Source: a virus. Taken from it: a stretch of DNA of 17,020 nt. Positions within the stretch are counted from its first letter, which is position 1. Each line of letters begins with the position of its first letter. This document shows, in pieces, positions 1 through 15,123 of this stretch. Location: positions 1-17,020 of the IMG/VR virus record IMGVR_UViG_3300045988_053285, one strand, 5' to 3'. The notes under the pieces are model-generated. The model ran no database searches. It saw nothing but the letters and a program-made list of their open reading frames with translations, and was not told the origin of the DNA. The position numbers and the translations under genes are program-made.

Positions 1-20
1 GTAAAAAATAGACCCCCCTT
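1..20. repeat. Left inverted terminal repeat (ITR) of a linear protein-primed genome
   Basis: Bases 1-20 (GTAAAAAATAGACCCCCCTT) are the exact reverse complement of 17001-17020. Five of the next seven positions also match (23-27 vs 16994-16998). The repeat starts at base 1 and ends at the last base of the window. Confidence 0.95.
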
Positions 21-49
21 ACCAGTTGCACTACAAAAGGCACATCCGT

Positions 50-93
50 TATATATTAAATCTGTCACCAACACAACAAGTATTGGTGACAGA
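50..93 (-). terminator. Intrinsic terminator closing the structural (late) operon
   Basis: Perfect 11-bp stem (61-71 TCTGTCACCAA / 83-93 TTGGTGACAGA) with an 11-nt loop, 7 nt after the stop of the last late gene (100-102). On the minus strand it is followed by UUUAAUAUAU. Confidence 0.6.
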
Positions 94-99
94 TTATCA

Positions 100-2340
100 T
101 CAATCAATGCCAAACATTTTGAGACGTTCCTGTACTAAGTGAGCCACATATTTCTGTCCTTTTTCATTGAAATGAACGCTATCACTAAGTAATGATGGAG
201 GGATTTTTCCTGCATTAATGTTAGCAGTATCGTTTGATGTTGGGGTTATGCTGTTGTAAGACAAACCGTATTTTACAATGGAATCATGTAAACTAATGTA
301 TCTACTTCCGAACTCTTTCAAGGCAAGAGTATCTAATGTGTGAATTTTATCTAGCGCACCATCGAAAGAGTCCCATGTTAATCCGATAAGAATGCAATTA
401 GGATACACTTTTTTAGCTTTTTTCCATCCGTTAAAAATGTCATCTGTGTTACCATCTAAATTGTTAGTTCCGCACCAGATAACATAAAATGAAAAATCTG
501 TGTTTGCAATGTTACAAATGAAAGGTTCGCCGAAGTAATTAAAAGGTTCACTTAAATTATCCACAGTGTATGTATTTTTTGTTCTTTTAATATCAAAAGT
601 GTGGTTGTTAACAGATACAGGATTAGTATTACCATAGTCCTGTAAGAACATACCGCTTTGTGAAAGTTCCAGAACAGTACCGTTTGATATAGTTCCAGTA
701 TTATTAGCATAAAGTGTGTCAATATTTGTTCTTGCAAAAATTTTAGATATACCATCTCCACCAACTGCATACGTGTAAGTCTTAAAGTTATTTCCGCTAA
801 AGAATTGCATATAATTTTGCGCTGTTAAACTGTCACCAATAAAAGCACAATTCACATAAATCTTAGGTGAAGCTGTAGTACCTTTAACCAAAGCAATGCT
901 AATTTTGTCAATAACACTTGGTGTAAGAGATTCACTGTATGGTATCTCCATTGCGATAATAGTAACAGCAGATGGAGAACCCTTTTTTCTCACAAAGTTA
1001 ATTGTATTAACACCGGGAGTGAGAACATTCATATCACTAGTAAAAGAATTTGAAAATACCTCTCCACTGTCCATTGCATACACAGTGAGATTAACTGGAA
1101 CAGGTGTATAAACAAGTGCTCTGTATTCAGTAGTGAAATTTGAGATGTCAGTGATGTGCGTAGTCAGTTCATAACCTATAACGCCGCTAGTTGCATCTTT
1201 TAAAGACGAATTACTCTCCACAAATTTAGGCTTACCGTCAAAACTTCCGTTAGTAATTACTTCGTTGTACGCATTATTAACGAACTGAGAGTAGCGTCTA
1301 CCGAAAGGCTGTTTTGCGTTAATAGTGTCAATTATTCCACTGTAATCAATATTCTTTGAGAATACAGTTAATTTACGTGAAGCTGTAGTACCTTTAACCA
1401 AAGCAATGCTAATTTTGTCAATAACACTTGGTGTAAGAGATTCACTGTATGGTATCTCCATTGCGATAATAGTAACAGCAGATGGAGAACCCTTTTTTCT
1501 CACAAAGTTAATTGTATTAACACCGGGAGTGAGAACATTCATATCACTAGTAAAAGAATTTGAAAATACCTCTCCACTGTCCATTGCATACACAGTGAGA
1601 TTAACTGGAACAGGTGTATAAACAAGTGCTCTGTATTCAGTAGTGAAATTTGAGATGTCAGTGATGTGCGTAGTCAGTTCATAACCTATAACGCCGCTAG
1701 TTGCATCTTTTAAAGACGAATTACTCTCCACAAATTTAGGCTTACCGTCAAAACTTCCGTTAGTAATTACTTCGTTGTACGCATTATTAACGAACTGAGA
1801 GTAGCGTCTACCGAAAGGCTGTTTTGCGTTAATAGTGTCAACCCAGGAAGCATAATCTACATTGATAGGGTACAGACCATTGATACCATAAGCAATTCCA
1901 GAATCTTTCCAGCTTGCATCATAGTAATATAGATGACCGTCACTTTTCAATACATAAATTTTCTTAGTATCAGTCATATCAGAGACGCTATCAACGAAAA
2001 CGGGCGCTACCTGCACATACGGTGCTATAATTGTAGACAGTGAGCCATCACTAGCCATCTTATCCAGCTTATTATTAATCTCTTTCTGTACGTCCAGATT
2101 ATCAAAATAATCGTTGACATACGACTGTAACTCTACATAAGCTGTGTGCAGGCTAACTACATCACCGTGCAAAGTTTCAACATCATGCATTGTTTTGTTC
2201 AGATAGTCCACGACCTTGCAAAGTAACTCATAATAACTCAGTGAGTCATCATACACAAGAGGTAAAACTTTCTGACACCAATAACGAAACGGTGTGAGTT
2301 CCGTGTATTCCCCTAAGTTTGGTGTATTATTTATACTCAT
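100..2340 (-). CDS. Tail appendage / receptor-binding protein: N-terminal anchor, two identical CBM-like modules, C-terminal SGNH (GDSL) esterase
   Basis: 746-aa ORF with RBS AAAGGAGA upstream of the ATG at 2340. It is the last gene of the structural block, the position of phi29 gp12. The N-terminal motif (DDSLSYYELLCKVVDYLN) is typical of Firmicute phage fibre/appendage N-termini (recollection). The C-terminal 255 aa carries all SGNH blocks: FIGDSLT (GDS encoded at 829-837), AVGGDG, WCGTNN, DSVHFN. Confidence 0.8.
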   Translation of the reverse strand: MSINNTPNLGEYTELTPFRYWCQKVLPLVYDDSLSYYELLCKVVDYLNKTMHDVETLHGDVVSLHTAYVELQSYVNDYFDNLDVQKEINNKLDKMASDGSLSTIIAPYVQVAPVFVDSVSDMTDTKKIYVLKSDGHLYYYDASWKDSGIAYGINGLYPINVDYASWVDTINAKQPFGRRYSQFVNNAYNEVITNGSFDGKPKFVESNSSLKDATSGVIGYELTTHITDISNFTTEYRALVYTPVPVNLTVYAMDSGEVFSNSFTSDMNVLTPGVNTINFVRKKGSPSAVTIIAMEIPYSESLTPSVIDKISIALVKGTTASRKLTVFSKNIDYSGIIDTINAKQPFGRRYSQFVNNAYNEVITNGSFDGKPKFVESNSSLKDATSGVIGYELTTHITDISNFTTEYRALVYTPVPVNLTVYAMDSGEVFSNSFTSDMNVLTPGVNTINFVRKKGSPSAVTIIAMEIPYSESLTPSVIDKISIALVKGTTASPKIYVNCAFIGDSLTAQNYMQFFSGNNFKTYTYAVGGDGISKIFARTNIDTLYANNTGTISNGTVLELSQSGMFLQDYGNTNPVSVNNHTFDIKRTKNTYTVDNLSEPFNYFGEPFICNIANTDFSFYVIWCGTNNLDGNTDDIFNGWKKAKKVYPNCILIGLTWDSFDGALDKIHTLDTLALKEFGSRYISLHDSIVKYGLSYNSITPTSNDTANINAGKIPPSLLSDSVHFNEKGQKYVAHLVQERLKMFGID
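867..1331. repeat. Direct repeat copy 1 (465 bp, 100% identical to 1377-1841), inside the appendage gene
   Basis: Block-by-block comparison shows 867-1331 equals 1377-1841 with no mismatch (period 510 bp). It encodes protein residues about 337-491 (DTINAKQPFGRRY...ALVKGTTAS). Confidence 0.97.
1377..1841. repeat. Direct repeat copy 2 (465 bp), inside the appendage gene
   Basis: Identical to 867-1331. It is separated from copy 1 by a unique 45-bp in-frame linker (1332-1376, RKLTVFSKNIDYSGI). It encodes residues about 167-321. Confidence 0.97.
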
Positions 2341-2354
2341 ATGTTATCTCCTTT

Positions 2355-3143
2355 CTACCATAACATAAAGAACAGGTCTTTCAGTTCATCCATAATCATC
2401 TGGTCAATGTTAAGCATTGAGTCTCGATACTCAATCAGCATCTTAGAGTAAGAACTACCACTACGCTTACCCTGTATGTGTTCCGTATAGTCTTTCAAGG
2501 AACTATATCCTCCACTACTATTAGTGTCACTAGTCCCAGCATTCACCTGTGTACCAGTATTGTCAACTTTCTGAGTACCTGTATCAGATGAATTAACCTC
2601 ATCGGTGATATTTCTAGCGTCTGTCAGATACTCGCCACTTTCAACACCAGTTAGTGCTCCCTGTGGTGTGTCGGAAAACTTGTTCCACTGATTACTTTCA
2701 TCTGTGTGCTTCAAGTCATCTGTGCGTAAGCTACTCAGATTGTCCGTTCTTGTGTTGATATCCTCACCATGAAGTGTTGAGTTGTTAGTTCCATCATCTT
2801 TTAGTGTGTGCGTAGTGTTCAAGTCTACATCATACAGAGGATTGAACTCAAGTGTTGCACTTTTATACAACTGATTGTAGTACGGCATAATCATGTTCAT
2901 ACGTTCAGTCAGCCACATCTTCCATATACCAGCCGTTTCAGACGCAATTTCACGGAGATAAAAGTGTTTCAGAATTTTACAACATAGCACTTTTCTATAT
3001 GACTCATCGTAGATCGGAAAGTCACCAAAAATTTTGTCCCAGCTTTTTTCAAGAATAGCATCTACATTAGACGCGCCCTGACTTTCAGAATATCCAGCTT
3101 CTCTTTCGCATATGAATCTTACTTCGGTTGTGTATTTACTCAT
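2355..3143 (-). CDS. Lower collar / tail tube protein (phi29 gp11-like by position)
   Basis: 262 aa from the ATG at 3143, with RBS GGTGGTGAG and an ATGAGTAA overlap with the portal stop. The ORF-track start at 3233 lies inside the portal gene and lacks an RBS. Placement directly after the portal and the size match phi29 gp11. No diagnostic motif was recognised. Confidence 0.6.
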   Translation of the reverse strand: MSKYTTEVRFICEREAGYSESQGASNVDAILEKSWDKIFGDFPIYDESYRKVLCCKILKHFYLREIASETAGIWKMWLTERMNMIMPYYNQLYKSATLEFNPLYDVDLNTTHTLKDDGTNNSTLHGEDINTRTDNLSSLRTDDLKHTDESNQWNKFSDTPQGALTGVESGEYLTDARNITDEVNSSDTGTQKVDNTGTQVNAGTSDTNSSGGYSSLKDYTEHIQGKRSGSSYSKMLIEYRDSMLNIDQMIMDELKDLFFMLW

Positions 3144-4020
3144 CAGTCTCACCACCCTCTCCGTAGTTATCCACATCTTCCACTTTTGGAATCTGGTAGT
3201 CCTGTCGATATTCAACCGTGATGTTTGTGCCAAACATCTGATTAATTTTATTTGCGGCAGTACGTCTGCTTTCCAGTCTGGAATAACGAGACGCTACGAC
3301 TCCACCCTGGTTTCGTGTTACTTCGTCCGTAATCAATCGTTCTTTTTTCTGCGTATTGATATTACTGATACCGAGTCTTGTTAATGCTTCGTTCCAATAC
3401 TGTGTTTTCAGTTCATAGATTTTATCAGCAACGAATGGTGCATTTGTTGTAACAGATCTAAGTGCAGATGGGTCGAGGTCATTGTCTCCAAAAATTACTG
3501 GTGCATTTCCGTCAAACTCTTTGTACACGTTAAGCAAAGAAAGTCTTTGTTTTTCTGTAGCACGTACCAGAACTGGCGTTTTCTGTGCATTTGCATTTAC
3601 GTCAATAATACGATCAAGATTGTATAATCGTTTTGCATAAATCATACAGTCTGTTACTGATGGTGTACGTAATAAGTTGTTATAGATAATAACACTGTCA
3701 GAGTTTGATAAAGTTTTATTATAGCCATTGTATCGTGAGTATGCTTTTCTTCTAGTCGGGTAGCCGTATACGTCAAAATTACCTGCTGGCAGACAAGATA
3801 AACATAACTGTGGCTTATTTTCCAGTTCTTCATCTTTAAACCAAACAGTTATACCAGATAAAAACAACTGCATTTCAAGATAGCGAACATCCACGCTTTC
3901 TGGTACGTTCCGCCACTCAAACATAGATACAGCCAGTTCAGACAGTACGCGTAGGTACTGCCCATATGTAGCTGTATTTCTTAAGATCGACTCGTCAAAA
4001 TTTGTTTTTCTTTTTCCCAT
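3136..4020 (-). CDS. Portal / upper collar connector protein (phi29 gp10-like)
   Basis: 294 aa from the ATG at 4020 (RBS TAGGAGA, 7-nt spacer); the TTG at 4026 is an alternative start. NANAQKTPVLVRATEKQRLSLLNVYKEFDGNAPVIF closely matches my recollection of phi29 gp10 (NQNAQKTPVLIRA...QLSLKQVYNQYEGNAPVIF), and the FEWRNVPESV region matches FEWENLP. Confidence 0.9.
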   Translation of the reverse strand: MGKRKTNFDESILRNTATYGQYLRVLSELAVSMFEWRNVPESVDVRYLEMQLFLSGITVWFKDEELENKPQLCLSCLPAGNFDVYGYPTRRKAYSRYNGYNKTLSNSDSVIIYNNLLRTPSVTDCMIYAKRLYNLDRIIDVNANAQKTPVLVRATEKQRLSLLNVYKEFDGNAPVIFGDNDLDPSALRSVTTNAPFVADKIYELKTQYWNEALTRLGISNINTQKKERLITDEVTRNQGGVVASRYSRLESRRTAANKINQMFGTNITVEYRQDYQIPKVEDVDNYGEGGETDE

Positions 4021-4031
4021 AGTCAAGTCTC

Positions 4032-5606
4032 CTAGTTTGTTGGTCTGTTATCAAGTGAATAATTACCGATCTCATCACCATTCATCCACCATGTAATACC
4101 ATTATTAAAGATGCTTACAATATCCCTAGCATCATCAGATGGTAATGAACCAGTGAGAACACAAGAAACTGTTTTGATAAAAGTCCAGTGCGGTCTTGCA
4201 TGCAAGTTTGGTGTCATCAGAGCATTCTGTGCATACCCATACATGGTAAAGAAGTCATCAATCAGTTTAGCAAATGTTGCGCGGACACACTGATGCTCAA
4301 AAGTAAACTGGACTTTACCCATCTGAGCGTTTAGTGAATCGCACTCAATCTGACCATGTACTTGTGGTGGTGTGTTTTCTAAATCCTGTTTCTTACCCAT
4401 AATAGCGTAAGCTTGATTGAACATATTTTGCTCACCCATAATAGCAGTTGTTGCGGCACTGTTTGATTTTCCATTCATAGCAGATGTTCCTACAGAAGCG
4501 ACGTTTGTCATTGCACTTGCAATCATTGCAGAGGTAACACTTCCTTTGTTCTGCGCCCACCATGCTTTCCATGCATCACCAGACCACGCTATGGTCGGAA
4601 AGTTTGATAGGACAAGACCACGGTCATAGTTTTTGTCCATACCCATATAATTGTTTGGATAAAGGATGACGGTTGGTGTTGTAACAATAGCACCAGCCAG
4701 TGTAAAATTTACAAGCGACTGAGAATCATCAGAGTATTTGAACTGTTCCCACCTGTATTCTGCGCGACTTCCAGCATTGTTTGATAGGACAAGTTTGCAG
4801 AATGGATAAGAAAAAAGCTTTCGATTCTTCACATCATATCCATCTATTTGCGTGATATTGTTGTAAACAGGAACAGTTTTTTCGTGCAAACCACCCGAGT
4901 TGTCTTGAGATTCTCCATCTTCGTCAAGAAACGATGGGTATTGGAACGCTGATATGATGGAATCTTCTTTTCCATTGTCTATCCAATTCTTAATTTCCGT
5001 TGTTACGGATGCAGAATCTAAAGCACGGATTCCAGACTCAAGTCCGAGTCCACAAAATATTTTACCACGCGTTTTTGCATCAGCCGTAGTGCCATCTGCT
5101 CTCTGTGAGTAGTAAAGACCGATTGACATAGTGTTTAAGTCAACCACTGTTTTTTTCTCTACTGTGTAATCACCTAAATCAAGATTTTCTGGAACTAGAT
5201 TTTCAAAGTACCGATCACTTTCACTATGCTGTCTCTCAACAAAACACTGTCCTAGTGTAAAGTCAAACAGCCACGACTGCAATACGTCAATCTGATAAGA
5301 CACAATAGATGTAACATTGTTCACATACTCGATTGAAGTAATAAACGCGTAGAACCACTTGTTTCCATAAGCTGTGTTCTGAAACATCAGATAGTTGCAA
5401 TCGTAGATTTCATCAGCCAGAACAGCGACTTTCATTGTGTTACGTGTGTGACGCTGATAGGTGTTTCTTGTGAAAGTACGTTTCTGTTTACTGATAAAGT
5501 AGCTGACCTGCTTTGCTTCGGAGTCAAAGTAGATCGTGTGGTCGTAGGTCGGTTCAAGCGGAACTGTGTGTAATAAACGTATAGTTGTGTTTGGATAAAT
5601 ATACAT
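4032..5606 (-). CDS. Tail knob / distal tail tube protein (phi29 gp9-like)
   Basis: 524 aa with RBS AAGGAG. YLMFQNTAYGNKWFYAFITSIEYVNN...YQIDVLQSWLFDF matches the conserved N-terminal region of phi29 gp9 as I recall it (YIMFQNADYGNKWFYAFVT...EIDVLQTWMFD). It sits between capsid and portal as in phi29. Confidence 0.85.
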   Translation of the reverse strand: MYIYPNTTIRLLHTVPLEPTYDHTIYFDSEAKQVSYFISKQKRTFTRNTYQRHTRNTMKVAVLADEIYDCNYLMFQNTAYGNKWFYAFITSIEYVNNVTSIVSYQIDVLQSWLFDFTLGQCFVERQHSESDRYFENLVPENLDLGDYTVEKKTVVDLNTMSIGLYYSQRADGTTADAKTRGKIFCGLGLESGIRALDSASVTTEIKNWIDNGKEDSIISAFQYPSFLDEDGESQDNSGGLHEKTVPVYNNITQIDGYDVKNRKLFSYPFCKLVLSNNAGSRAEYRWEQFKYSDDSQSLVNFTLAGAIVTTPTVILYPNNYMGMDKNYDRGLVLSNFPTIAWSGDAWKAWWAQNKGSVTSAMIASAMTNVASVGTSAMNGKSNSAATTAIMGEQNMFNQAYAIMGKKQDLENTPPQVHGQIECDSLNAQMGKVQFTFEHQCVRATFAKLIDDFFTMYGYAQNALMTPNLHARPHWTFIKTVSCVLTGSLPSDDARDIVSIFNNGITWWMNGDEIGNYSLDNRPTN

Positions 5607-5625
5607 AAACTACTCCTTTTTCAAG

Positions 5626-5654
5626 ACGCTACCATCTATTACAGATGGTAGCGT
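5626..5654 (-). promoter_or_regulatory. Stable stem-loop immediately downstream of the capsid gene (mRNA stabiliser or partial terminator)
   Basis: 11-12 bp perfect stem (5626-5636 ACGCTACCATC / 5644-5654 GATGGTAGCGT), about 10 nt after the capsid stop codon (5665-5667). No U-tract follows on the minus strand, so it is not a canonical terminator. Confidence 0.5.
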
Positions 5655-5664
5655 ATAGTCAAAA

Positions 5665-7077
5665 TCATCCAATCTTATTCAGTACAACTTTTGAACCAAC
5701 CGCTGAATCAGAATTAATTAGTGTATCCGTGGCATACTTTACGCCGTTAATAACCATCGTCAGTGTAACTTTCTTAGCCGACGAGGATGCAGGAATCATA
5801 ATAGCACCATACGGAAGAATGGCGATACCATCAGTTGTTGCCTGTTCGGTCTGCTTGAACTGATATGTTCCCTGTACAAGCGTAGCTGTATCATCCTGCA
5901 CACCGAGTGTAAATACTGTTGCAACGTCACTGGTATCTTTTCCAGTAATTTCAACTGTGTAAGAATCTTTCGGTGCGATTTCAGCCGTATCGGTAACAAA
6001 CACGATTGCATTTGAAAACGGAGAACTGGAAATAGTTTTCCAAACATGGTAGAAATAATTCCAGTACATTCCAGACGCACAATACTGTTCGGTGAATTTT
6101 GCGTTGTTATCGTAAACCTGGAACCAATCTGTATCAATCAGAACCGCCTTTACGTTTTTCATGATAGCCAGTTCATCTGCGGTTACCTCTTCAAGTCCGT
6201 CAGAGTTCTCACGGATAACATCGAACCGTTCATTGTCAAATGAAGTCCAGTCGTCAATCAGATGAAGCGCGCCTGTGTAAGTTGCTTTGTCCATATTGAA
6301 CGCGGCGGCAAGAACACCAACGTCGTATTTAGCATTAAACCAACTGTCCATAAAGATAGCCTGGTTTTCACGCGGTGTGGTGGTACGCACACCAGAAGCG
6401 TTGTACTTTGTTTTCATGAAAGTAAGATCATTCGAAGCACCGCGAAACGTAGCACCAGCTTCTTCCAGATTAGTGCCAGAACCGATGGACATTGGAAACA
6501 TTTTTCCATGTGATACACCCTTAATGAGCAGATACTTGAACAGCAGAAACTCGTCATACTCAGCAGCCTTGTAAACAGATTCTACGATTTTAGCAACTAA
6601 ATCCTGTACACCGGATTCAGCTAAGAAAGCAAGACGTAAATCTTCGTCCTGTATTGTTACCGGATACATAACGCGCCAGTTCATCGTGTGGAATGCGGTT
6701 TTTACATCTGGAAGTGTACGCTTAAATTCGCGCGCCGCTCCTTTTTCTGGCGTGTAATCAACAACCTTTGCAATCTGCACAAAGATTTCTTCGACGGTTT
6801 CACCGAACTCAAGATAACCTTTTTTGAGTGATGCATACGGGTTGTTGAATGTAGCACTTTTTGCCATTACAAGCGCGATACGGTTGACAAGCGCGTTAAT
6901 GTACTGGTTAGCAAAAGCTGGGGTACCACAGATTACTTCACCGACTTTCGGAATGTCGCTTGCTTTAGCGACAACTGGCACAGACTGCTGATAATCATAG
7001 GATGCATTCTGGCGAATAACATTCATGATGTCAAGCGTTGATGCCTGCAAGGTTGATTTTGCAATTCTTCTAGGCAT
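5665..7077 (-). CDS. Major capsid protein (phi29 gp8-like) with C-terminal Ig-like extension
   Basis: 470 aa; the RBS TAGGAGG overlaps the scaffold stop. LIDTDWFQVYDNNAKF...GMYWNYFYHVWKTISSSPFSNAIVFV matches the phi29 gp8 core as I recall it (LVDKDWFMVYDN...[26 protein letters not shown]). A further ~100 aa, beta-rich tail occupies the place of the phi29 BIG2 domain. Confidence 0.9.
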   Translation of the reverse strand: MPRRIAKSTLQASTLDIMNVIRQNASYDYQQSVPVVAKASDIPKVGEVICGTPAFANQYINALVNRIALVMAKSATFNNPYASLKKGYLEFGETVEEIFVQIAKVVDYTPEKGAAREFKRTLPDVKTAFHTMNWRVMYPVTIQDEDLRLAFLAESGVQDLVAKIVESVYKAAEYDEFLLFKYLLIKGVSHGKMFPMSIGSGTNLEEAGATFRGASNDLTFMKTKYNASGVRTTTPRENQAIFMDSWFNAKYDVGVLAAAFNMDKATYTGALHLIDDWTSFDNERFDVIRENSDGLEEVTADELAIMKNVKAVLIDTDWFQVYDNNAKFTEQYCASGMYWNYFYHVWKTISSSPFSNAIVFVTDTAEIAPKDSYTVEITGKDTSDVATVFTLGVQDDTATLVQGTYQFKQTEQATTDGIAILPYGAIMIPASSSAKKVTLTMVINGVKYATDTLINSDSAVGSKVVLNKIG

Positions 7078-7089
7078 TTCTATTTCCTC

Positions 7090-7380
7090 CTATTCTGTCT
7101 TGAAAAGACTTTCATATGTTAATGGTTTTGGTGAATCGGAATCATCTTCGGTTGTATCTGGTTCCGGTTCATCGTTACCGCTAAAACGGTCAGTATAACG
7201 CTTGCGCCATGCCTTGTCATTTTCTTCATACTTTGTTTTCCAGTCCTCTGCTGACTTTGCATTAAGATCAGAAAACGTGTCTGATACATCTTCCAACATG
7301 GCAAGCTGTGTATCGTCTGGCGACTCACCAAAAGAAGATTTCAGTGCGTCAATAATTTCCTGTGTAGTTCTTACTGCCAT
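7090..7380 (-). CDS. Scaffolding protein (phi29 gp7-like by position and composition)
   Basis: 96 aa from the ATG at 7380 with a strong RBS (AAGGAGA). The ORF-track start at 7419 is a TTG without an RBS. The protein is small, acidic, probably helical, and lies directly upstream of the capsid gene. Confidence 0.6.
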   Translation of the reverse strand: MAVRTTQEIIDALKSSFGESPDDTQLAMLEDVSDTFSDLNAKSAEDWKTKYEENDKAWRKRYTDRFSGNDEPEPDTTEDDSDSPKPLTYESLFKTE

Positions 7381-7391
7381 AATGATTCTCC

Positions 7392-8447
7392 TTAAATGAA
7401 ATATTTGCACATCATCCAAACAGGCATCTTCTTTTTCTTTTTTATCGGCGGCAACGGTGGTACGTCACCGCCAGACAAGAAAAGGAAAATCAACAAAGCA
7501 TTGTTTAAATTGGCTTCACTTCCGAAAGAGAGAAGCGTTGAACTAGGATTGTCGTAAGATTCTTCGTTGTACCATGCAGACGGTGTGTCCGAAGCGTGGG
7601 TGTTAAAATACTCAAGATAAGTGTTTGCGCATGAAATACGATAGGAAAGGGAGGAATCACTAATACCCTCCCATCCGCGCATGAACGCTTCTGTCAACAT
7701 GGAAATATCGTTACTTGTACTGGACAAGAACGCTGACAAGTTGTCAAAGTTTGCGGCAACGCCGGACTGATACCAGATATTTTCATGAATGAAATAGGCA
7801 AGCTGACCGTTTCCATCGTTCGATGCATACCCATTATCATGTAACCAGTTAAGCAACTGTGTGCGTCTGTTCGTCTCAGAGTTGTCAGTCCATTGTCCTA
7901 AACCAAAACCCTGCTTATATCCTAGTTCCCACTGTCCCGGGTTTAATGTACTTTCCTGCATCCAGTTACCGCATATTGCGGCGGCAACGTAAGCAGATGC
8001 ACCAACACCGGAACCACCAGACCCATACCTAAAGCAACGTGACCAGTTGCTCGGAGATGACTCCGTAGTGCTGATGCTTACTTGTTGGTCAAGTGGTGCG
8101 TCATCTGTGTGCGCACCCATTGTTATCCGTCCACGATATACCATTTCGGTGTGACCCGACCGCCAGAGAATATCACCCGGTTTCCATGCATTCGAAACAG
8201 GTACTTCTGTAAATCCCATTGATTGCAGAACTGGTATAATATCGGAAGTAGTGAACGGACGTAGGGAACCGTAAGTCTCAATGACGGGGAATGCGCCCGC
8301 AACAAGTGCGTACCAGACAAATGAGGAACAGTCATAGTAGGTTATTCCGTTTACTGTCTGCTGTTCCCGGTATGTCTGTGAATAACCGACGTTTGGTCGA
8401 TTACAGGTAGACACCGCCCAAGACCATGAAGTGTTAATGTTAGCCAC
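7392..8447 (-). CDS. Virion-associated peptidoglycan hydrolase (tail lysin): Pal/Amidase_5-like Cys-His domain plus phage-tail-lysozyme-like domain
   Basis: 351 aa with a GTG start at 8447 that overlaps the endolysin stop (GTGGCTAA). The N-terminal domain has YYDCSSFV (Cys) and WKPGDILWRSGHTEMVY (His). The C-terminal domain has ICGNWMQESTLNPGQWE...GFGLGQWT, which resembles the phage tail lysozyme family signature. The two-domain layout parallels phi29 gp13. Confidence 0.75.
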   Translation of the reverse strand: MANINTSWSWAVSTCNRPNVGYSQTYREQQTVNGITYYDCSSFVWYALVAGAFPVIETYGSLRPFTTSDIIPVLQSMGFTEVPVSNAWKPGDILWRSGHTEMVYRGRITMGAHTDDAPLDQQVSISTTESSPSNWSRCFRYGSGGSGVGASAYVAAAICGNWMQESTLNPGQWELGYKQGFGLGQWTDNSETNRRTQLLNWLHDNGYASNDGNGQLAYFIHENIWYQSGVAANFDNLSAFLSSTSNDISMLTEAFMRGWEGISDSSLSYRISCANTYLEYFNTHASDTPSAWYNEESYDNPSSTLLSFGSEANLNNALLIFLFLSGGDVPPLPPIKKKKKMPVWMMCKYFI

Positions 8448-9126
8448 GATCTAAACCCTCTTTTGCTACGTAACCAGTATAAACGTTACCATTAACTACT
8501 GCTTTTACCAGATACCATATTCCGGTATAATACCCATAGTTTCTAACGCCAGTTCCTGTAGGTAAAGTTAAAATTACTGCTTTATCCATTCCAGCACCAA
8601 CACGCAACTTGTAACGATCATTGGTGTGATACGCACCTGCGATTTTTCGATCGAAGCTACGTGCGGGTTCTGCTCTGATTGGCTCTACAATCTCCTGTGG
8701 TTTTTCATTTCCAATATAACGATAATGGACGGTATTTTCATATGGCAGAACGTAATAAGGTCTAACGCATATTTCTCTTCCAGTCTGATCACCTGTCTCA
8801 CCATCAATTCCACCGTTCTCTGACTGACTGGCGTGAACGATGAGTGAAGCGTCCGTTGACATTGTAACATGATGCCCAGCGGCAAGATGAATGTCACCGC
8901 GTTTCCACGGAGCATGGCACTTTTTAAACCCGCACTTGATAAGCTGTGATTCAAGGTTGCGCGTTGTACTATATTTACTGACAGCAAAGCCTGCCTTACT
9001 TAACGCTGTTCCAACCAGTGAACTACAGTCATAGTCCGGACTGTTTCTGTGTACCTGTGAATAACCGTGACGGTCATCGGCGGCAATCTGTTCCGCCCAT
9101 GCTACTGCTGTTTCAATTTTAGGCAT
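8440..9126 (-). CDS. Endolysin: Pal/Amidase_5-like Cys-His amidase plus C-terminal SH3b-like wall-binding domain
   Basis: 228 aa from the ATG at 9126 (RBS AGGAGGTG, 8-nt spacer, ATGCCTAA overlap with the holin stop). AVAWAE...GYSQ...PDYDCSSLV and APWKRGDIHLAAGHH parallel the pneumococcal phage Dp-1 Pal amidase N-terminus as I recall it. The C-terminal YKLRVGAGMDKAVILTLPTGTGVRNYG...WYLVKAVVNGNVYTGYV has an SH3b-like pattern. Confidence 0.8.
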   Translation of the reverse strand: MPKIETAVAWAEQIAADDRHGYSQVHRNSPDYDCSSLVGTALSKAGFAVSKYSTTRNLESQLIKCGFKKCHAPWKRGDIHLAAGHHVTMSTDASLIVHASQSENGGIDGETGDQTGREICVRPYYVLPYENTVHYRYIGNEKPQEIVEPIRAEPARSFDRKIAGAYHTNDRYKLRVGAGMDKAVILTLPTGTGVRNYGYYTGIWYLVKAVVNGNVYTGYVAKEGLDRG

Positions 9127-9337
9127 TATTTTCACCTCCTAGATGAATGCACAAAGAATTGATTGCTAGTGTATTTGCTTCAATGCTCTTACGTAATTCG
9201 GCAACCTCTTCCTTATGCATCTCGTTATCTTCCTCACGCCGCTGTTCTGTTTTCAAGTGATCCCAAAACAGTACACCGCAACACACAATAGGAAATCCAT
9301 ACTGACTGATAAACTGTCCAATCTGTGCTAAATCCAT
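9119..9337 (-). CDS. Holin-like protein (BhlA/UviB-type: one N-terminal TM helix plus charged coiled coil)
   Basis: 72 aa from the ATG at 9337 (RBS GAGAGGTG); the GTG at 9346 is an alternative start. One hydrophobic helix (FPIVCCGVLFW) is followed by a highly charged tail. It lies immediately upstream of, and is translationally coupled to, the endolysin. Confidence 0.6.
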   Translation of the reverse strand: MDLAQIGQFISQYGFPIVCCGVLFWDHLKTEQRREEDNEMHKEEVAELRKSIEANTLAINSLCIHLGGENNA

Positions 9338-9363
9338 TTTCTTCACCTCTCTTTCGTAATTTC

Positions 9364-9392
9364 ATCATAACACTTAGGGTTGATTTTGTCAA
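9364..9392 (-). promoter_or_regulatory. Promoter of the structural/lysis operon
   Basis: On the minus strand: TTGACA (9392-9387), 17-nt spacer, TGT-TATGAT extended -10 (9372-9364). It lies about 25 nt upstream of the holin RBS. Confidence 0.75.
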
Positions 9393-9408
9393 GCTTTTAT
9401 GATATAAT
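9380..9408 (+). promoter_or_regulatory. Promoter of the packaging ATPase gene
   Basis: TTGATT (9380-9385), 17-nt spacer, extended -10 TGATATAAT (9400-9408). It lies about 40 nt upstream of the ATG at 9448. Its -35 box is 1 bp from the -35 of the divergent late promoter. Confidence 0.7.
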
Positions 9409-9447
9409 ATTTTTAGAAACAAAATATTGGAAAGGAAGAATGTTTGA

Positions 9448-10485
9448 ATGTCAAAATATTACGATGGAACGAAACTTCTTTCGCTCAAAGATCTTGACGG
9501 ACAACGACCGGAAATTTATATGGTCACGACAAACCGAACAGGAGGTAAGACTACGTATTTTGGACGGTATTCTGTTCGGCGTTTCATAAACTTCAATGAA
9601 AAGTTCGCACTACTTTACCGGTTTAACTACGAACTGGACAATGTGTCTGACAAATTCTTTAAAGACTTGAAAACTCTGTTCTTTCCTAGTATGGAAATGA
9701 CAAGTAAGAGACTTGCTCATGGTATCTTTCATGAGTTATATCTGGATGAGCGTTCCTGCGGATACGCTATCACATTAAACAGTGCCGATCAGCTTAAAAA
9801 ATATTCGCATTTATTTTCTGACGTTGACCGCATTTTATTTGACGAGTTTCAGTCGGAGACAAACCATTACTGCGATAAGGAAGTAAAAAAGTTCCAGAGC
9901 ATTCACACTTCTATTGCTCGTGGACAGGGAGAACAGACTCGTTATGTTCCTGTATACATGATGTCAAACCCCGTAACTCTATTAAATCCATACTACAGTG
10001 CTATGAAAATAGGAAGTAGATTACAGTCTAATACGAAATTCCTACGTGGAAGTGGATGGGTATTGGAACAAGGTTATGTTGACAGTGCGGCGAAAGCAAT
10101 GAAACAATCTGGTTTTGCAAAAGCTTTTGCCGAAGATGATTACATGAAGTATTCCACCGAAGCCGTGTATCTGAATGACAATTACTCTTTTGTTGAAACA
10201 ATGCAAGGAAAATGCAAGTATGTTTGTACACTAAGATATATGGGAAAAGAGTATGGTGTTAAAGAATATGTAGAAAAAGGTGTGGTGTATGTCGATGATA
10301 AGCCAGACTTAACTTATCCATACAAGATCACAGTTACAACCGAAGATCATCAGATCAACTACTTGATGCTACAGAAGCACGATATATTTATCATGAACAT
10401 GCGTTTTCTGTTCAGCAAGGGTGCGTTCCGGTTCAAGAATCTGGAATGCAAAGAAGCAACGCTGGCGGCGTTGTCGTACAGATAA
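9448..10485 (+). CDS. DNA encapsidation (packaging) ATPase, phi29 gp16-like
   Basis: 345 aa. Walker A is TNRTGGKTT and Walker B is RILFDEFQ. The length and the N-terminal ASCE ATPase plus C-terminal domain layout match phi29 gp16. It is the only convincing plus-strand gene. Confidence 0.85.
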   Translation: MSKYYDGTKLLSLKDLDGQRPEIYMVTTNRTGGKTTYFGRYSVRRFINFNEKFALLYRFNYELDNVSDKFFKDLKTLFFPSMEMTSKRLAHGIFHELYLDERSCGYAITLNSADQLKKYSHLFSDVDRILFDEFQSETNHYCDKEVKKFQSIHTSIARGQGEQTRYVPVYMMSNPVTLLNPYYSAMKIGSRLQSNTKFLRGSGWVLEQGYVDSAAKAMKQSGFAKAFAEDDYMKYSTEAVYLNDNYSFVETMQGKCKYVCTLRYMGKEYGVKEYVEKGVVYVDDKPDLTYPYKITVTTEDHQINYLMLQKHDIFIMNMRFLFSKGAFRFKNLECKEATLAALSYR

Positions 10486-10607
10486 TTATGGTATCTACCA
10501 TTGTTTCATATCATGATAAGAAAGGGTGCCCAGTTGAAAATATACTGCCTTACTTATTTACTGCTAGGCAAGCAGGCGTGGTGTGTTCAGTGGTTAAAGA
10601 TATATGT

Positions 10608-10651
10608 AAGAAGCAGGGATAACTTACCTAGTAAGCTCCCTGCTTCTTTTT
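10608..10651. terminator. Bidirectional intrinsic terminator between the convergent ATPase and replication operons
   Basis: 12-bp stem AAGAAGCAGGGA (10608-10619) / TCCCTGCTTCTT (10637-10648), extended by an inner CTTAC/GTAAG pairing. A T-run follows on the plus strand. It abuts the stop codon (10650-10652) of the last minus-strand gene. Confidence 0.75.
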
Positions 10652-10883
10652 AATTACTCTTAAACAAACCTTTCTTGTATACACGAATTACAAGCCAACC
10701 TCTTAATTTGTCTAGTGTAATGCTCCAGATCATATATTTTTCTGGTTTCAGTTCGTCACAGTAACGTATCATTTTTTCACATCTTCCTTTGAAAATTTCT
10801 TTTCCGTTATCGTAGTCTGAAATATCAATCACTATGCAGTATACAGACGGTGAGATGTATAATCTAAACTCTTCCAGCGTCAT
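10650..10883 (-). CDS. Hypothetical protein (77 aa), last gene of the replication operon
   Basis: The ATG at 10883 has GGAGG 9 nt upstream. The longer ORF-track start (10952) would overlap the upstream gene by 89 nt. No recognisable motifs. Confidence 0.5.
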   Translation of the reverse strand: MTLEEFRLYISPSVYCIVIDISDYDNGKEIFKGRCEKMIRYCDELKPEKYMIWSITLDKLRGWLVIRVYKKGLFKSN

Positions 10884-11268
10884 AGTATTCATCCTCCAAT
10901 TCAATAAAAAGACGGTTATCAAGAACACCAACGGCTTTAATAATTCTTTCACCTAACTTTTCAAATGCCCAGTTGGTCGTAATTTTTTCAAAGAAATAAT
11001 TTTTTTCTGGTCTAACGATAGTAACATCGCTGGTAGTAAGAATCGTGAGTAGTGCTTTCAACTTCATTCCTTTTCCTGTGACGTATTCGGTGTACAGACC
11101 TGTTCCAAACACTTTATTCAGATGATTTTTTACCTCTTTAGTAGAATCATAAATAATTTCTACATTGTTCTTAGGGTCTGCAATTACTAAGCCGTACCGC
11201 ATTGCAAACAGATCAAATGGTGTCAATGTAATTGTTGCTACACTTTTGCTTGATGTTTCAATCTTCAT
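10864..11268 (-). CDS. Hypothetical protein (134 aa) downstream of the DNA polymerase
   Basis: ATG at 11268 with RBS GAGGTG that overlaps the polymerase stop. It occupies the position of the phi29 gene 1 region. No recognisable motifs. Confidence 0.6.
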   Translation of the reverse strand: MKIETSSKSVATITLTPFDLFAMRYGLVIADPKNNVEIIYDSTKEVKNHLNKVFGTGLYTEYVTGKGMKLKALLTILTTSDVTIVRPEKNYFFEKITTNWAFEKLGERIIKAVGVLDNRLFIELEDEYYDAGRV

Positions 11269-11274
11269 TTTTTA

Positions 11275-13260
11275 TCACCTCATTTTATATGTTGTTTCGC
11301 AGAGCAACACGCCGCCGGGAATACGCTTTGGCATCAGCTTTCCGGGAACAGTCATTCCATAAGTAAAATCAGTTAAATCTCTGTGAATAGGTTTGTCAGT
11401 TTCATCGAATAAGAAATCTTTCTCTTCCTCTTTCCAGTCATCCGGTTTTCCTTGCTTATCTTCCATACTTCTGATGAACAGGTCTTTACACTTGCTCGGC
11501 ATGCCGGCACATTTTACATTATAATAAGGGTCAACTTTCTCACCAACCCATTCGTTGTCTTTCAACTCAAGATCTTCTTCAACTACGTGTTCAATGTATG
11601 TTTTCTGACGAGTGAAAATAGCCTTATCCCATTTGCTTTCCAATTTCCAGCAACAAAAAGCTGTGTTGTGTACCTTAATACCCTTTACTTCTTCTGGTTT
11701 TAAGTTACAGTGAATACTATCTGTATCGGCATATATAAAACCTGCTTTGTCTACACCATGATAGTTCGCTTGTGCCGCTCTGATCGTAAAGTTACGTGCG
11801 TAACTTGTTATCGCCGAACCGATCGGTATATAGCCAGGCTGTTTGTCGTGCGCTTCTACGCTACGGAACCCGATTGAGTTGTCATCTTTCAGATATGCTA
11901 CCTTAAATGAACTGTCCGTGCTACTTGCAAACTTCCCGTACAGGTTGTTCAAGAAAAGTTTTGCCAACTGACGCATTGCTCCCTTACTGTTCATTTTAAT
12001 TTCCTTATACTTGTCAATATAAGCATCGAACAAGCCATTTTTTTTCTCAAAATAACAGCCGTCTAGTATTTCAAAATCCTCGACGTCATAGTGTTCTAAG
12101 AAAAGCTTGTAATCTGTCATTGTTAAGGTCAACTCTACAGTGGTTGGAACTTTGTTCATGTTACCATCATAGATGTATCTATGGTATTGTCCATTGAGGT
12201 ATACATCTGAGGTTTCCAGTGCTTCTGTTCCCCTGTACAGAGATGAACCTTTTATCTGGATAAAAGGTAACTTATCTTTATTGAGATAGAAACGTGTTCT
12301 AATCCGAACGAAGAAATATTTTTCGTGCGCTACATCCGGTATAGTTTTCTGGAAGAACACAGGAAATCCTATAGGATAATAGTTACCAGATTCAGAGTGC
12401 ATCATAGACGGATACAATGAATTTACATCAGCAGTTACGCCATCACCATATGGTATACCAGTCTTACCTTTTACAGCATAACACCAGCCACCTTTGTAGG
12501 ACTTTTTAACATACTCACCAGCATTAGAAACGCCATATGTACTCTTGTCGATCTTGAAGTCGTAGAGGTTTGGAAACATCTGATCCCACTCATATACCGT
12601 TTCATGCTCAAATATGTTTTTATATTCTTCCATGCAACACGAACCGATCGTCAGCTTGTTATGACCCTCTGCGAACATGAACTCGATTGCTTCTTTTATG
12701 ACAAGAACGTCGTTCTTAATATACTCAATCTCTTCTGCTGTGATTTCACAACCAGCATATCGCAAACCTTTGTATTCCATTTCAAGTTTACGGTGCTTTA
12801 ACTTAAACGATTCACCGATTGTCTTGACAGAAAATGGCAAAAGCTTTAATGAGTCACGCAACTCAATGAACTTGCCGTTGCCCAAGCGTATTGTAATCGA
12901 GTACCACTGACCTTTATCGCTAATGGAATACTTGAAAGAACGAAAACTCATATCTTTCTCTTTCAACCAGCTTACGCTGTACGATTCAGACGAATTGACT
13001 ACGAAAGATTGTTGATAACCTTGTTTGATTAAGTAATCTATCCAGAAAGAACCATCAAATTTTAAGTTATGAAAATAGCAGATTACGTTACACTTGTAGG
13101 ATGCAAGATGTTTAAGACAATCTCCGATGCTATGCGACACGGTGACTGACTCTGTGTTTAACTCTACTGTAGCCGCCGCCCACACTTCGGTATCAGTTTG
13201 ACCAGCGTATACGGTCGTTTCAAAATCTCCTACAAAATAACGATACTTGCGCTTTTTCAA
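11275..13260 (-). CDS. Protein-primed family B DNA polymerase (phi29 gp2-like)
   Basis: 661 aa with a TTG start at 13260. Exo I is FVGDFETT, Exo II YFHNLKFDGSF, Exo III YIKNDVLVI. Motif A is DVNSLYPSMM, motif B KLFLNNLYGKF, motif C IYADTDSIH, and KxY is RQKTYI. These are nearly identical to the phi29 motifs as I recall them (e.g. YFHNLKFDGAF, DVNSLYPAQM, KLMLNSLYGKF, IYCDTDSIH). Confidence 0.95.
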   Translation of the reverse strand: MKKRKYRYFVGDFETTVYAGQTDTEVWAAATVELNTESVTVSHSIGDCLKHLASYKCNVICYFHNLKFDGSFWIDYLIKQGYQQSFVVNSSESYSVSWLKEKDMSFRSFKYSISDKGQWYSITIRLGNGKFIELRDSLKLLPFSVKTIGESFKLKHRKLEMEYKGLRYAGCEITAEEIEYIKNDVLVIKEAIEFMFAEGHNKLTIGSCCMEEYKNIFEHETVYEWDQMFPNLYDFKIDKSTYGVSNAGEYVKKSYKGGWCYAVKGKTGIPYGDGVTADVNSLYPSMMHSESGNYYPIGFPVFFQKTIPDVAHEKYFFVRIRTRFYLNKDKLPFIQIKGSSLYRGTEALETSDVYLNGQYHRYIYDGNMNKVPTTVELTLTMTDYKLFLEHYDVEDFEILDGCYFEKKNGLFDAYIDKYKEIKMNSKGAMRQLAKLFLNNLYGKFASSTDSSFKVAYLKDDNSIGFRSVEAHDKQPGYIPIGSAITSYARNFTIRAAQANYHGVDKAGFIYADTDSIHCNLKPEEVKGIKVHNTAFCCWKLESKWDKAIFTRQKTYIEHVVEEDLELKDNEWVGEKVDPYYNVKCAGMPSKCKDLFIRSMEDKQGKPDDWKEEEKDFLFDETDKPIHRDLTDFTYGMTVPGKLMPKRIPGGVLLCETTYKMR

Positions 13261-13263
13261 GTG

Positions 13264-14121
13264 TTAGTAATCTCCGTCCATCATATCGTCTAAATCTTCG
13301 AATGAGCGCATAGCATATTCAGACAACGTAAAACCAGCAATACTGCTTAACAGATTGATGATAGCTTGAGCAGACGCTCTTACTAAATCACCGTCAGAAT
13401 CGTAATGAATGATGCCTAGCCACTTCTGGATATCATCCCAGTGGCTTGACAACTCTTCACCCAATCTATTCTTTCCGAGGTCAATCACATTAAAATCTTT
13501 TTGCTGTTCTTTCGGCAACGTTTTCATGATGGTATTACCTACCTCTTCCAGAACTTCATCTAACGCCGATAAAATTTCATTCAAGGCTCTGTTCGCTATC
13601 TCGGCAACCTCCGGTTTTCGCCTTACTCTTTTACCTGTAACAGATGTGTAATAATACACGTCCATTGTCGAGATAATCTCTTTCAGTTTATCCACCAAAT
13701 CATTTACTGCTTGTGCATAAGCTAATGCTGGTACGTCTGTTACAGGTACTTTTGTACCGTCAGTGCTTGTCCAGAAACGCTGTTCTGCTTCTTTGTTCGC
13801 TTTTCTTGTTTCACTGGCTTTCTTTGCTCTTAATTTCCGTTCAAGATTTAAACCCTCTTTGCCGGAAACTATTTCTCCGAATGTCGCTTCGCCACCGTAA
13901 GTAGCTTTTGAATACAATACGTCTTTCGTTAGCTTTTTAAGTCTTCGAATACTAGCTTCAGTTTTACGCTTCGGAATAGACGGAATAAGTGTGTCTGGAA
14001 AACTATATCCACGCTTTTCCGCTCTTCTAACGAACGACTTAAGACGGTTTTGCTCTTTTGCGTAAGCCTTGTTGATAGCTTGTTGTTTTGCGCTCTGTTT
14101 CTTTGCTGTTTTCTTTGCCAC
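13264..14121 (-). CDS. Terminal protein (phi29 gp3-like, by synteny and charge pattern)
   Basis: 285 aa with a GTG start at 14121 (RBS GAGAGGT). It lies directly upstream of the polymerase. The N-terminus is very basic (MAKKTAKKQSAKQQ...RRAEKRG) and the C-terminus acidic (HYDSDGDL...FEDLDDMMDGDY), as in phi29 TP. The presence of ITRs requires a TP. Confidence 0.65.
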   Translation of the reverse strand: MAKKTAKKQSAKQQAINKAYAKEQNRLKSFVRRAEKRGYSFPDTLIPSIPKRKTEASIRRLKKLTKDVLYSKATYGGEATFGEIVSGKEGLNLERKLRAKKASETRKANKEAEQRFWTSTDGTKVPVTDVPALAYAQAVNDLVDKLKEIISTMDVYYYTSVTGKRVRRKPEVAEIANRALNEILSALDEVLEEVGNTIMKTLPKEQQKDFNVIDLGKNRLGEELSSHWDDIQKWLGIIHYDSDGDLVRASAQAIINLLSSIAGFTLSEYAMRSFEDLDDMMDGDY

Positions 14122-14151
14122 TGTTTTTACCTCTCTTTACTATTGATACAA

Positions 14152-14180
14152 GAAAAAGGAGGTATCAAACCTCCCTTTCT
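14152..14180 (-). terminator. Intra-operon intrinsic terminator/attenuator between the SSB-like and terminal-protein genes
   Basis: Minus-strand RNA GAAAGGGAGGU-UUGAU-ACCUCCUUUUUC: a GGAGGU/ACCUCC core stem, extendable by A-U and G-U pairs, running into a U5 tract. It starts 7 nt after the SSB-like stop and ends 31 nt before the TP GTG start. Confidence 0.55.
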
Positions 14181-14186
14181 TATTTG

Positions 14187-14543
14187 TTAACAATGCTGTA
14201 CACTGTTATAGTCTAAGCGACAGTCGATGAAGTCTCGCCCTGCTTTCGTCTTGCCAGACTCTTTAATAATTGCATACGGTTCTCCGCCGAACACCTCATG
14301 AATCTTTTCCAGTGATTTACGGAACGTTGCCGACTGGAAAGCATATACCTTTCCGCTGGTGTCCATGATTGCCGTAATATCGGTGATAGTACCATCTTCT
14401 TTTTCGTCCTCGTAAGAACACCAAACTGATACAGGAATCGAAGTTCCGTCCGGAACATCTTTCATGGACTCTGCACCCTTGTCGACTGTCAGCATGTACT
14501 GTTCAATTTTTGTGAGATCTTTACTTGCTTTTAATACTTTCAT
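14187..14543 (-). CDS. Single-stranded DNA-binding protein candidate (phi29 p5-like)
   Basis: 118 aa from the ATG at 14543 (RBS AAGGAGA); the ORF-track start at 14627 has no RBS. Size and position (between the p6-like gene and TP) fit phi29 gene 5. MKDVPDGTSIPV...TAIMDTSGKVYAFQS...GKTKAGRDFIDCRL loosely parallels phi29 p5 as I recall it (FKNLPDGTIIEA...IFAADGSLYSAIS...GTSSKGNVFFSLQL). Confidence 0.5.
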   Translation of the reverse strand: MKVLKASKDLTKIEQYMLTVDKGAESMKDVPDGTSIPVSVWCSYEDEKEDGTITDITAIMDTSGKVYAFQSATFRKSLEKIHEVFGGEPYAIIKESGKTKAGRDFIDCRLDYNSVQHC

Positions 14544-14661
14544 TTTCGTTTTTCTCCTTATTCTTGTTTTGCTGTGACAAGTGCGGAAAGACCTGTCACC
14601 TGTTTTAAAGACACTACTTTCTTGCACGTATGGTTGAATTTTGAAGTGTTATTACCTACTT

Positions 14662-14943
14662 TTAGTTACGTTTCGGAAGTGGCTCTAACTCAGTCGCATT
14701 GGCGATAAATACAGCTTCTAACATTCCGTAACGTTTTTCGAACGGCTCTACAGCCAGGATTTTCACTACTTTAAAAACTTCTGTATCATGTTCTTTTCGA
14801 ATCTTATTCAAAAGCTTTTCGTCATTGGTGTGCTGTCCCCCGATCTCGTAAGTTACATTGCACGGCTCACAGGTATTTGTGTCCATTGCAAGGACTGTTA
14901 CTTTTGTACCGATTACGGTACGAGTTACCATTGATTCTCTCAT
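14662..14943 (-). CDS. Histone-like double-stranded DNA-binding protein candidate (phi29 p6-like)
   Basis: 93 aa, ATG at 14943, RBS AAAGGAGG. It is the first gene of the replication operon, like phi29 gene 6. VVKILAVEPFEKRYGMLEAVFIANAT parallels my recollection of phi29 p6 (VQVVSVEPNTEVYELPVEKFLEVAT). Confidence 0.5.
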   Translation of the reverse strand: MRESMVTRTVIGTKVTVLAMDTNTCEPCNVTYEIGGQHTNDEKLLNKIRKEHDTEVFKVVKILAVEPFEKRYGMLEAVFIANATELEPLPKRN

Positions 14944-14991
14944 TTCCGTTTTCCTCCTTTTCTTGTTTTGTTGTTTCGGAAATTATTTTTA

Positions 14992-15117: not shown

Positions 15118-15123
15118 GTATTT

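Follow-up and report, generated by a model that had tools for sequence, protein, structure and literature searches.

How can a phage protein come to carry two long segments that are identical at every base of their DNA, and what might such a pair be for? This question is raised by the IMG/VR virus record IMGVR_UViG_3300045988_053285, of which positions 1 to 17,020 were analysed; this whole stretch of 17,020 nucleotides (nt) is hereafter called the window. The two segments lie in one gene, predicted to encode the appendage (tail-fibre) protein of a phi29-like podovirus. Receptor-binding proteins decide which bacteria a phage infects, and phi29-like phages are abundant and little studied in the human gut. 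The explanation preferred here, to which a probability of about 0.8 is given, is a genuine tandem duplication of a jelly-roll module of about 155 amino acids, resembling a carbohydrate-binding module (CBM), in the appendage of a phi29-like gut podovirus, the duplication being old, its copies homogenised and its copy number variable.

Base-by-base extension of a self-match at offset 510 gave 465 identical positions out of 465 between 867-1331 and 1377-1841. The two 465-bp copies are separated by a unique in-frame spacer of 45 bp (1332-1376), with a period of 510. An exact match of 465 nt cannot arise by chance in 17 kb, and the 17,020-bp window holds no other long repeat, the second-longest direct repeat being one of 50 nt at 90% identity. 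As the period is a multiple of three and the repeat falls within a single open reading frame (minus strand, 100-2340, 746 amino acids plus stop), the duplication preserves the reading frame. DTINAKQPF opens the repeated peptide and ALVKGTTAS closes it; its two occurrences span residues 168-322 and 338-492 and are joined by KLTVFSKNIDYSGII (residues 323-337). A first-pass annotation, made from the sequence alone, had reported the 465-bp identity and the unique 45-bp in-frame linker, and both were confirmed on extension. Its two identical 155-residue modules agree over the first 154 residues and differ in the last, which is R in one and P in the other, and the peptides NGSFDG and VIDKISIALV, which it took for the module ends, are both internal. 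The assignment to an appendage gene agreed with the position of the gene after the lower-collar and connector genes, as for phi29 gp12; the minus strand (100-2340) and the C-terminal SGNH esterase had gone unmentioned. The features of the repeat are as follows.

100..2340, minus strand: appendage (tail-fibre) gene, 746 amino acids plus stop, from the open reading frame list; neighbouring genes match Phage_connector, phi29 gp9 tail knob and Phi29_MCP.
1377..1841 (codons 1375-1839), minus strand: repeat copy forming module M1, residues 168-322; exact 465-nt identity with 867-1331, jelly-roll in the AlphaFold2 model.
1332..1376, minus strand: linker KLTVFSKNIDYSGII, residues 323-337, the 45-nt spacer; homologous in two-copy relatives, low predicted local distance difference test (pLDDT) values.
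867..1331 (codons 865-1329), minus strand: repeat copy forming module M2, residues 338-492; exact identity with the M1 copy.

Two plus-strand open reading frames, 896-1111 and 1406-1621, were rejected as genes. These are identical frames of 71 amino acids generated by the repeat, antisense to the appendage gene.

All of the sequences compared were short-read metagenome assemblies. Five two-copy relatives, fully sequenced and originating from different samples and assemblers (L002, L008, L009, L010 and L011), share the architecture of the window with a period of 513. The two copies within each of these genomes differ at 1, 0, 1, 7 and 14 positions, respectively, of about 470 nt. Module DNA is 97-100% identical within genomes versus 83-97% between genomes, and the window module differs by 12-17% from that of every other two-copy genome. 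Synonymous divergence was 0-0.019 between copies within genomes, versus 0.145-0.232 when the window modules were set against each relative's. All six two-copy genomes have homologous 45-nt linkers (82-96% DNA identity); the linker of the window has diverged most, keeping pace with the domains on either side. A homologous linker junction in diverged genomes implies a single ancestral duplication that is old, and a linker diverged about as much as the flanking domains implies that the two-copy state was inherited vertically. Without homogenisation, the divergence between M1 and M2 in the window would be expected to equal or exceed that between the lineages, and ongoing homogenisation thus explains why it is zero. 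Paralogues that are closer within a genome than orthologues between genomes, despite a shared junction, are in these alignments the signature of concerted evolution. The first-pass annotation had read zero divergence as a very recent duplication or ongoing gene conversion; the linker shared by diverged genomes contradicts the recency, whereas the ongoing homogenisation was upheld.

The same within-genome homogeneity was observed in a clade about 48% identical (P0018, P0019, P0026) and in clades whose modules are unrelated in sequence (P0028, P0031, P0055, P0098, P0118 and others). Tandem module copies at least 94% identical were present in about 20 of 120 family proteins. The IMG/VR contig L003/L012 and the ENA contig L013 are further independent two-copy assemblies. 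In the window, one derived codon is found in both copies:

1630..1632, minus strand: derived codon AGA, Arg237 in M1; AGC (Ser) in the one-copy twin described below and in all relatives.
1120..1122, minus strand: derived codon AGA, Arg407 in M2; same substitution as Arg237.

A derived change from AGC to AGA in both window copies is what conversion would predict from the sequences. A separate observation concerns L009 and L010, in which the appendage genes (3001-5247; P0006 and P0008) encode a very different N-terminal anchor, with 72% DNA identity and a synonymous divergence (dS) above 1. Over the modules and SGNH domain they match the other genomes, and the window among them, at 84-98% identity. 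The pattern indicates that anchors have been swapped between phage lineages in mosaic fashion, switching near a conserved YFDNLDVQ motif.

Copy number was found to vary. A one-copy twin of the window, L001 from ERZ27274286, is a MEGAHIT contig of 16,510 bp, which is 17,020 minus 510, and is 99.97% identical over the 11.8 kb available. Its appendage protein (P0002, 576 amino acids) equals the window protein less exactly one unit, and within the appendage gene the sole further difference is one base (AGC versus AGA). In a tree of the SGNH domain the one- and two-copy proteins interleave, requiring at least five changes of state. The first-pass annotation had proposed copy-number change by homologous recombination and a comparison with related phages for single-copy versions; the twin, lacking one 510-bp unit, and the interleaved one-copy forms supplied both. 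About one unit also separates the members of nine near-identical protein pairs (89-100%), including P0014/P0006, P0009/P0003, P0025/P0019, P0030/P0031, P0042/P0033, P0043/P0048, P0047/P0054 and P0088/P0091. In eight of the nine the difference is a single indel of 100, 101, 170, 171 or 173 amino acids; in P0030/P0031 it amounts to 164 amino acids, which the alignment splits into two adjacent gaps. With 101-residue units only 72-85% alike, P0047/P0054 cannot be put down to assembly collapse. The pairs P0047/P0054 and P0088/P0091 carry a 101-residue module type in two- and three-copy versions, the proteins being otherwise 99.8-100% identical. One-unit differences in another module type indicate that the copy-number polymorphism belongs to the appendage family as a whole. 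Its common direction is loss, from two copies to one, because the conserved linker cannot be recreated; gains need recombination with a multi-copy genome. No three-copy array of the window module type was found, the linker-pattern scans of IMG/VR and JGI giving one locus each and none being aimed at three-copy arrays. The appendage gene also appears split in two contigs of 16.6 and 16.0 kb, into P0026 (511 amino acids, ending after the second module and without SGNH) and P0027 (433 amino acids, starting inside the linker, with one module and SGNH). These split genes could be frameshifts, assembly errors or real two-gene versions.

The window protein consists, in order, of a helical N-terminal anchor, a module, the 15-residue linker, a second module and a C-terminal SGNH/GDSL esterase. 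The remaining features of the protein are listed below.

1876..2340, minus strand: N-terminal virion-anchor region, residues 1-155, mostly helical, with the family-wide motif LPLVYDDSLSYYELLCKVV; from conservation and AlphaFold2.
1840..1875, minus strand: pre-module segment LYPINVDYASWV, residues 156-167; compared with the linker in relatives.
103..864, minus strand: SGNH/GDSL hydrolase domain, residues 493-746; from motifs and profile matches.
826-837, minus strand: block I, GDSL, residues 502-505; seen in the sequence.
757-762, minus strand: block II, GG, residues 527-528; seen in the sequence.
460-471, minus strand: block III, GTNN, residues 624-627; seen in the sequence.
172-183, minus strand: block V, DSVH, residues 720-723; seen in the sequence.

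Residues 1-155 are 65-80% identical across more than 100 appendage proteins with differing middle modules. Conservation of this region while the modules change suggests that it behaves like a virion-attachment domain. AlphaFold2 placed helices at residues 19-108, with low confidence as a monomer. The second half of the linker is an eroded copy of the segment before M1 (YPxN[VI]DY..W), obvious in P0018 (pre-module IYPKNVDYNTWV, linker LYPANIDYASWV) and P0028 (LYPKYIDFNTWS and IYPNNIDFNTWS) and faint in the window (LYPINVDYASWV and VFSKNIDYSGII). Such an origin implies an original unit of about 170 amino acids, in agreement with the period. The G, D, S, N and H residues of the SGNH domain are invariant in alignments A2 and A3. 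The A2 profile of this domain matched PAF-acetylhydrolase Ib (E=2.6e-5), the GDSL-like lipase 3p94 (E=4e-4) and the phage tail spike 9sij, and the SGNH domains of relatives matched the Pfam GDSL families PF13472 and PF00657. Searches with the window protein itself yielded less: nothing significant in Pfam for the whole protein or for each part, and no PDB sequence match at E<=1 for the full-length protein. In the full-length AlphaFold2 monomer model (predicted template modelling score, pTM, 0.35) the pLDDT fell below 50 at residues 145-171, 319-341 and 488-495. Low values between domains make the modules look like separate beads, and the linker (within the low stretch 319-341) is probably flexible, as judged from the model. 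A fold search with the full-length model returned mostly generic two-jelly-roll proteins (bicupins, seed globulins), and the sole informative match was YxiM (PDB 2O14), which combines a jelly-roll with SGNH.

The module on its own, modelled with AlphaFold2 from a 10-sequence alignment, was predicted to be an all-beta jelly-roll sandwich (pLDDT 86.6, pTM 0.83). Foldseek matches in the PDB were SUN, a CBM32 chitosan-binding module, CBM29, APC10/Doc1, the muskelin discoidin domain and a Klebsiella phage tailspike CBM, all of them weak (TM scores 0.35-0.48, E 4e-4 to 1e-2), though with probabilities of 0.99-1.0. Among viral models the matches were discoidin or F5/8-C domains and minor tail proteins of phages. 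When module and linker together were run exhaustively with HMMER against 1.84 billion representatives, 5 sequences matched and no named CBM4/9 was among them; an RCC1-repeat protein was spurious, and P0122, made up of five CBM-like repeats, showed a weak sequence link. No Pfam family matched the module even at E<=10, and a profile of the module alignment A1 found nothing at E<=0.001 in a set of 5.8 billion proteins, probably owing to word-index limits. The first-pass annotation had called the modules CBM4/9-like jelly-rolls and suggested structure prediction for one of them. The jelly-roll was predicted with confidence and has CBM-type structural neighbours, while the CBM4/9 assignment was not supported, there being no Pfam match and the best fold matches being SUN, CBM32, CBM29 and discoidin domains at low TM scores. 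On the model, the module is best placed among jelly-rolls of the galactose-binding-like class, to which many CBMs and receptor-binding domains of phages belong, and its likeness to CBMs is one of fold class. Variable sites showed no clear clustering and no clear hypervariable face (40 of 78 sites in strands, 55 of 93 outside). Ratios of nonsynonymous to synonymous divergence (dN/dS) were 0.74-1.04 for the module, 0.17-0.29 for the anchor and 0.26-0.31 for the esterase. By these ratios the module is the fastest-evolving part of the protein, as is expected of a host-contact surface.

Two other accounts of the repeat itself have to be weighed. A very recent de novo duplication in the window genome, with zero divergence as a sign of youth, would fit copies that are 100% identical, and the 99.97%-identical one-copy genome could then be read as its ancestor. 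We consider this highly improbable: an independent event would not remake a linker homologous at 82-96% in two-copy genomes whose modules are 12-17% off those of the window, and the twin has the ancestral Ser codon where both window copies have Arg. The other account is assembly artefact, either as a spurious second copy or as a perfect identity and a one-copy twin that both stem from short-read repeat collapse. Several points favour it and so weigh against an old, homogenised and variable array. The contigs are short-read metagenome assemblies throughout, and a de Bruijn-graph assembler passing twice through a collapsed repeat node would give identical copies by construction, exactly 100% identity being the product of a node traversed twice. 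A collapsed node could mask a few real differences, the shared Arg codon included, and the shared AGA is equally the product of such a node. Collapse during assembly could, in principle, also have produced the one-copy twin, and the exact copy number of the window phage (2, or 3 and more) cannot be taken from the assembly. Four IMG/VR contigs of 10-15 kb also stop in the appendage gene, L003 exactly where a module copy ends, while L006 falls four residues short of that point, L005 breaks off within the first module and L007 runs out ahead of the modules. At this gene, breaks are systematic in short-read assemblies of these phages. Because contigs break or collapse there, copy numbers and host ranges predicted from short reads are unreliable. 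MEGAHIT normally breaks contigs at such branches and does not skip them. A spurious second copy is excluded because the linker is unique and in frame, several assemblers recover it and some relatives' copies differ slightly. Module sequence on both sides of the linker means that at least two copies were present in the reads, and the same architecture came from different assemblers and samples (SPAdes NODE contigs, other scaffolds, IMG/VR). The copies of L010 and L011 differ at 7 and 14 sites and so were resolved as distinct loci, yet are 97% alike, and the unit indels of P0047/P0054, present despite copies only 72-85% identical, make collapse implausible in that pair. Artefact is therefore judged improbable overall, and the risk that remains concerns only the perfection of the identity and the reality of the twin.

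Granted a genuine tandem duplication, the modules might still be an inert spacer stalk, the number of copies setting nothing more than the distance between virion and SGNH domain. The linkers are predicted to be flexible, with the modules like beads on a string; almost no homologues are detectable beyond the phage family (5 among 1.8 billion representatives); and periscope proteins work in this manner (PMC8201768). Relaxed constraint on a spacer would give a dN/dS near 1 just as readily as diversifying selection would. Together with the low TM scores given above, this leaves sugar binding putative; at the enzymatic end, the window's own SGNH domain falls short of Pfam thresholds (E=0.19). Against an inert stalk stand a fold class used by many CBMs and phage receptor-binding domains, and the swapping of the middle module among family members with a conserved anchor, which is typical of specificity determinants. 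We regard a purely inert stalk as rather unlikely, and the spacer and binding roles are compatible with each other.

For the tandem duplication of a CBM-like module, the proposed mechanism is intragenic homologous recombination between the two 465-bp copies. Possible routes are gene conversion, unequal crossing-over between genomes that are being replicated, and slippage or template switching during protein-primed strand-displacement replication. The same recombination would even out the copies and delete one of them, occasionally adding one, and a phage population would thereby hold appendages of differing length and valency. The modules may attach to a glycan of the cell wall and hold the distal SGNH esterase in position, and the esterase may take an ester, probably O-acetyl, off that wall polymer. 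SGNH tailspikes of other phages deacetylate surface polysaccharides in the course of adsorption. Two identical modules would double the binding sites per appendage and lengthen its reach, and a mutation that changes specificity would be copied into both. Two-copy forms last in many lineages despite easy deletion, which suggests that the second module is often advantageous, through more binding sites or a longer esterase reach. A broader idea is advanced only tentatively: the module array may act as a high-frequency copy-number switch (a "contingency locus") across a large family of phi29-like gut phages, protein-primed strand-displacement replication or recombination continually making 1-, 2- and 3-copy variants and homogenising the copies. 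If so, each burst would hold length and valency variants able to cope with changes in the thickness or acetylation of host capsule or wall polysaccharide, and new specificity mutations would reach all modules at once. Recombination between identical modules would be a simple way to vary reach and valency without point mutations, and it recurs across many lineages and module types. One- and two-copy phages that are otherwise 99.97% identical exist in public samples and offer a system in which to study the effect of module number on adsorption and host range.

No literature description of homogenised, copy-variable module arrays in phi29-like phages was found, and the closest parallels come from other systems. 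In the periscope proteins SasG, Rib/alpha C and Sgo_0707, tandem domains are identical in DNA and vary in number by intragenic recombination (Whelan et al. 2021, PMC8201768). The appendage resembles them in the near-identical DNA of its tandem folded domains, in a repeat number that differs among close relatives (here in short-read assemblies) and in its distal functional domain. Periscope proteins differ in being bacterial and anchored to the cell wall, often with many repeats, whereas this is a phage virion protein from a 17-kb genome with one or two copies (two or three in other module types), and its monomer model (pTM 0.35) gives no basis for predicting a stalk geometry. In a coevolution experiment with Enterococcus phage EfV12-phi1, in-frame tandem duplications in the tail fibre were selected as the host altered its surface polysaccharide, and long reads gave heterogeneous copy number within populations (Wandro et al. 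2019, PMC6365445). That case shares an identical in-frame tandem duplication in a receptor-binding fibre, beside a carbohydrate-binding domain. Its unit is 1.8 kb and arose de novo in the laboratory in a large myovirus, whereas the present unit is 0.5 kb, occurs in natural phi29-like podovirus populations and shows an ancient conserved junction with long-term homogenisation. In crAss-like gut phages, tail-associated proteins have tandem repeats of BACON domains produced by domain duplication (de Jonge et al. 2019, PMC6949934). Here too, beta-sandwich domains of carbohydrate-binding-like type stand in tandem, but the BACON copies have diverged, their homogenisation has not been reported, and the fold family and phage group are different.

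With phi29 gp12 the appendage shares its position after the lower-collar gene and a presumed role as a collar-attached appendage that recognises a wall polymer (review PMC11476376). The gp12 protein is a beta-helix tailspike with an autochaperone, while the window protein has a helical anchor, two jelly-rolls and an SGNH esterase; no homology to the gp12 beta-helix was found, there being no PDB sequence match at E<=1, no Pfam match and different predicted folds. In B. subtilis YxiM (PDB 2O14) and the tail spike 9sij, an SGNH hydrolase is likewise joined to a beta-sandwich or CBM-like module, but the similarity is remote (E ~1e-2 to 1e-5, low TM) and neither has an identical tandem module pair. 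Among phages, G7C gp63.1 is a deacetylating tailspike that is likewise not known to carry such a pair.

The genomic setting agrees with a phi29-like phage. Inverted terminal repeats of 27 nt (93% complementary) lie at the exact ends of the window, at 1-27 and 16994-17020, which implies a complete linear phi29-like genome with protein-primed replication. The gene complement includes a phi29-type major capsid protein, the tail knob gp9, the connector gp10, a gp16 packaging ATPase and a protein-primed family-B DNA polymerase, and a lower collar/adaptor gene was identified through PHROGs. The appendage gene lies directly downstream of the following two genes, in the position of phi29 gp12.

3136-4026, minus strand: connector; Phage_connector match.
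2355-3233, minus strand: lower collar; lower collar/adaptor PHROGs.

The C-terminus of the appendage protein matches PHROG tail protein and tail fibre families. A GGAG Shine-Dalgarno sequence precedes the ATG of the gene, and a terminator scan found none downstream. A search of the whole window against Rfam gave no family at the gathering score, and no packaging RNA (pRNA) was recognisable despite the gp16-type packaging ATPase. A whole-window megablast against GenBank phages gave zero matches, and the closest contigs were ENA and IMG/VR metagenome assemblies. By tblastn of the appendage protein, the N-terminal anchor recurred only in phages from human faeces that lack annotation and, at a weak level, in Hungatella phage CH17P1; there were remote SGNH matches in other tail proteins, and no annotated close relative. 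The window is likely a gut phage of Clostridia.

Three further observations were made outside the appendage gene. The gp16-like packaging ATPase gene (9448-10485) is encoded by the plus strand and the capsid, tail, appendage and DNA polymerase genes by the other, an arrangement unlike the phi29 late operon. The non-coding right end holds a 50-nt direct repeat (16803-16852 and 16897-16946, 90% identity, 94 nt apart), which might represent a promoter duplication, an origin element or a piece of a small RNA. Two adjacent minus-strand genes, 7392-8447 and 8440-9135, encode cell-wall hydrolases (tail-associated lysins), one with phage tail lysozyme and amidase-5 domains and the other with amidase-5, endolysin-like and NlpC/P60 domains. 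With the SGNH appendage, these give three predicted wall-active enzymes in a small virion.

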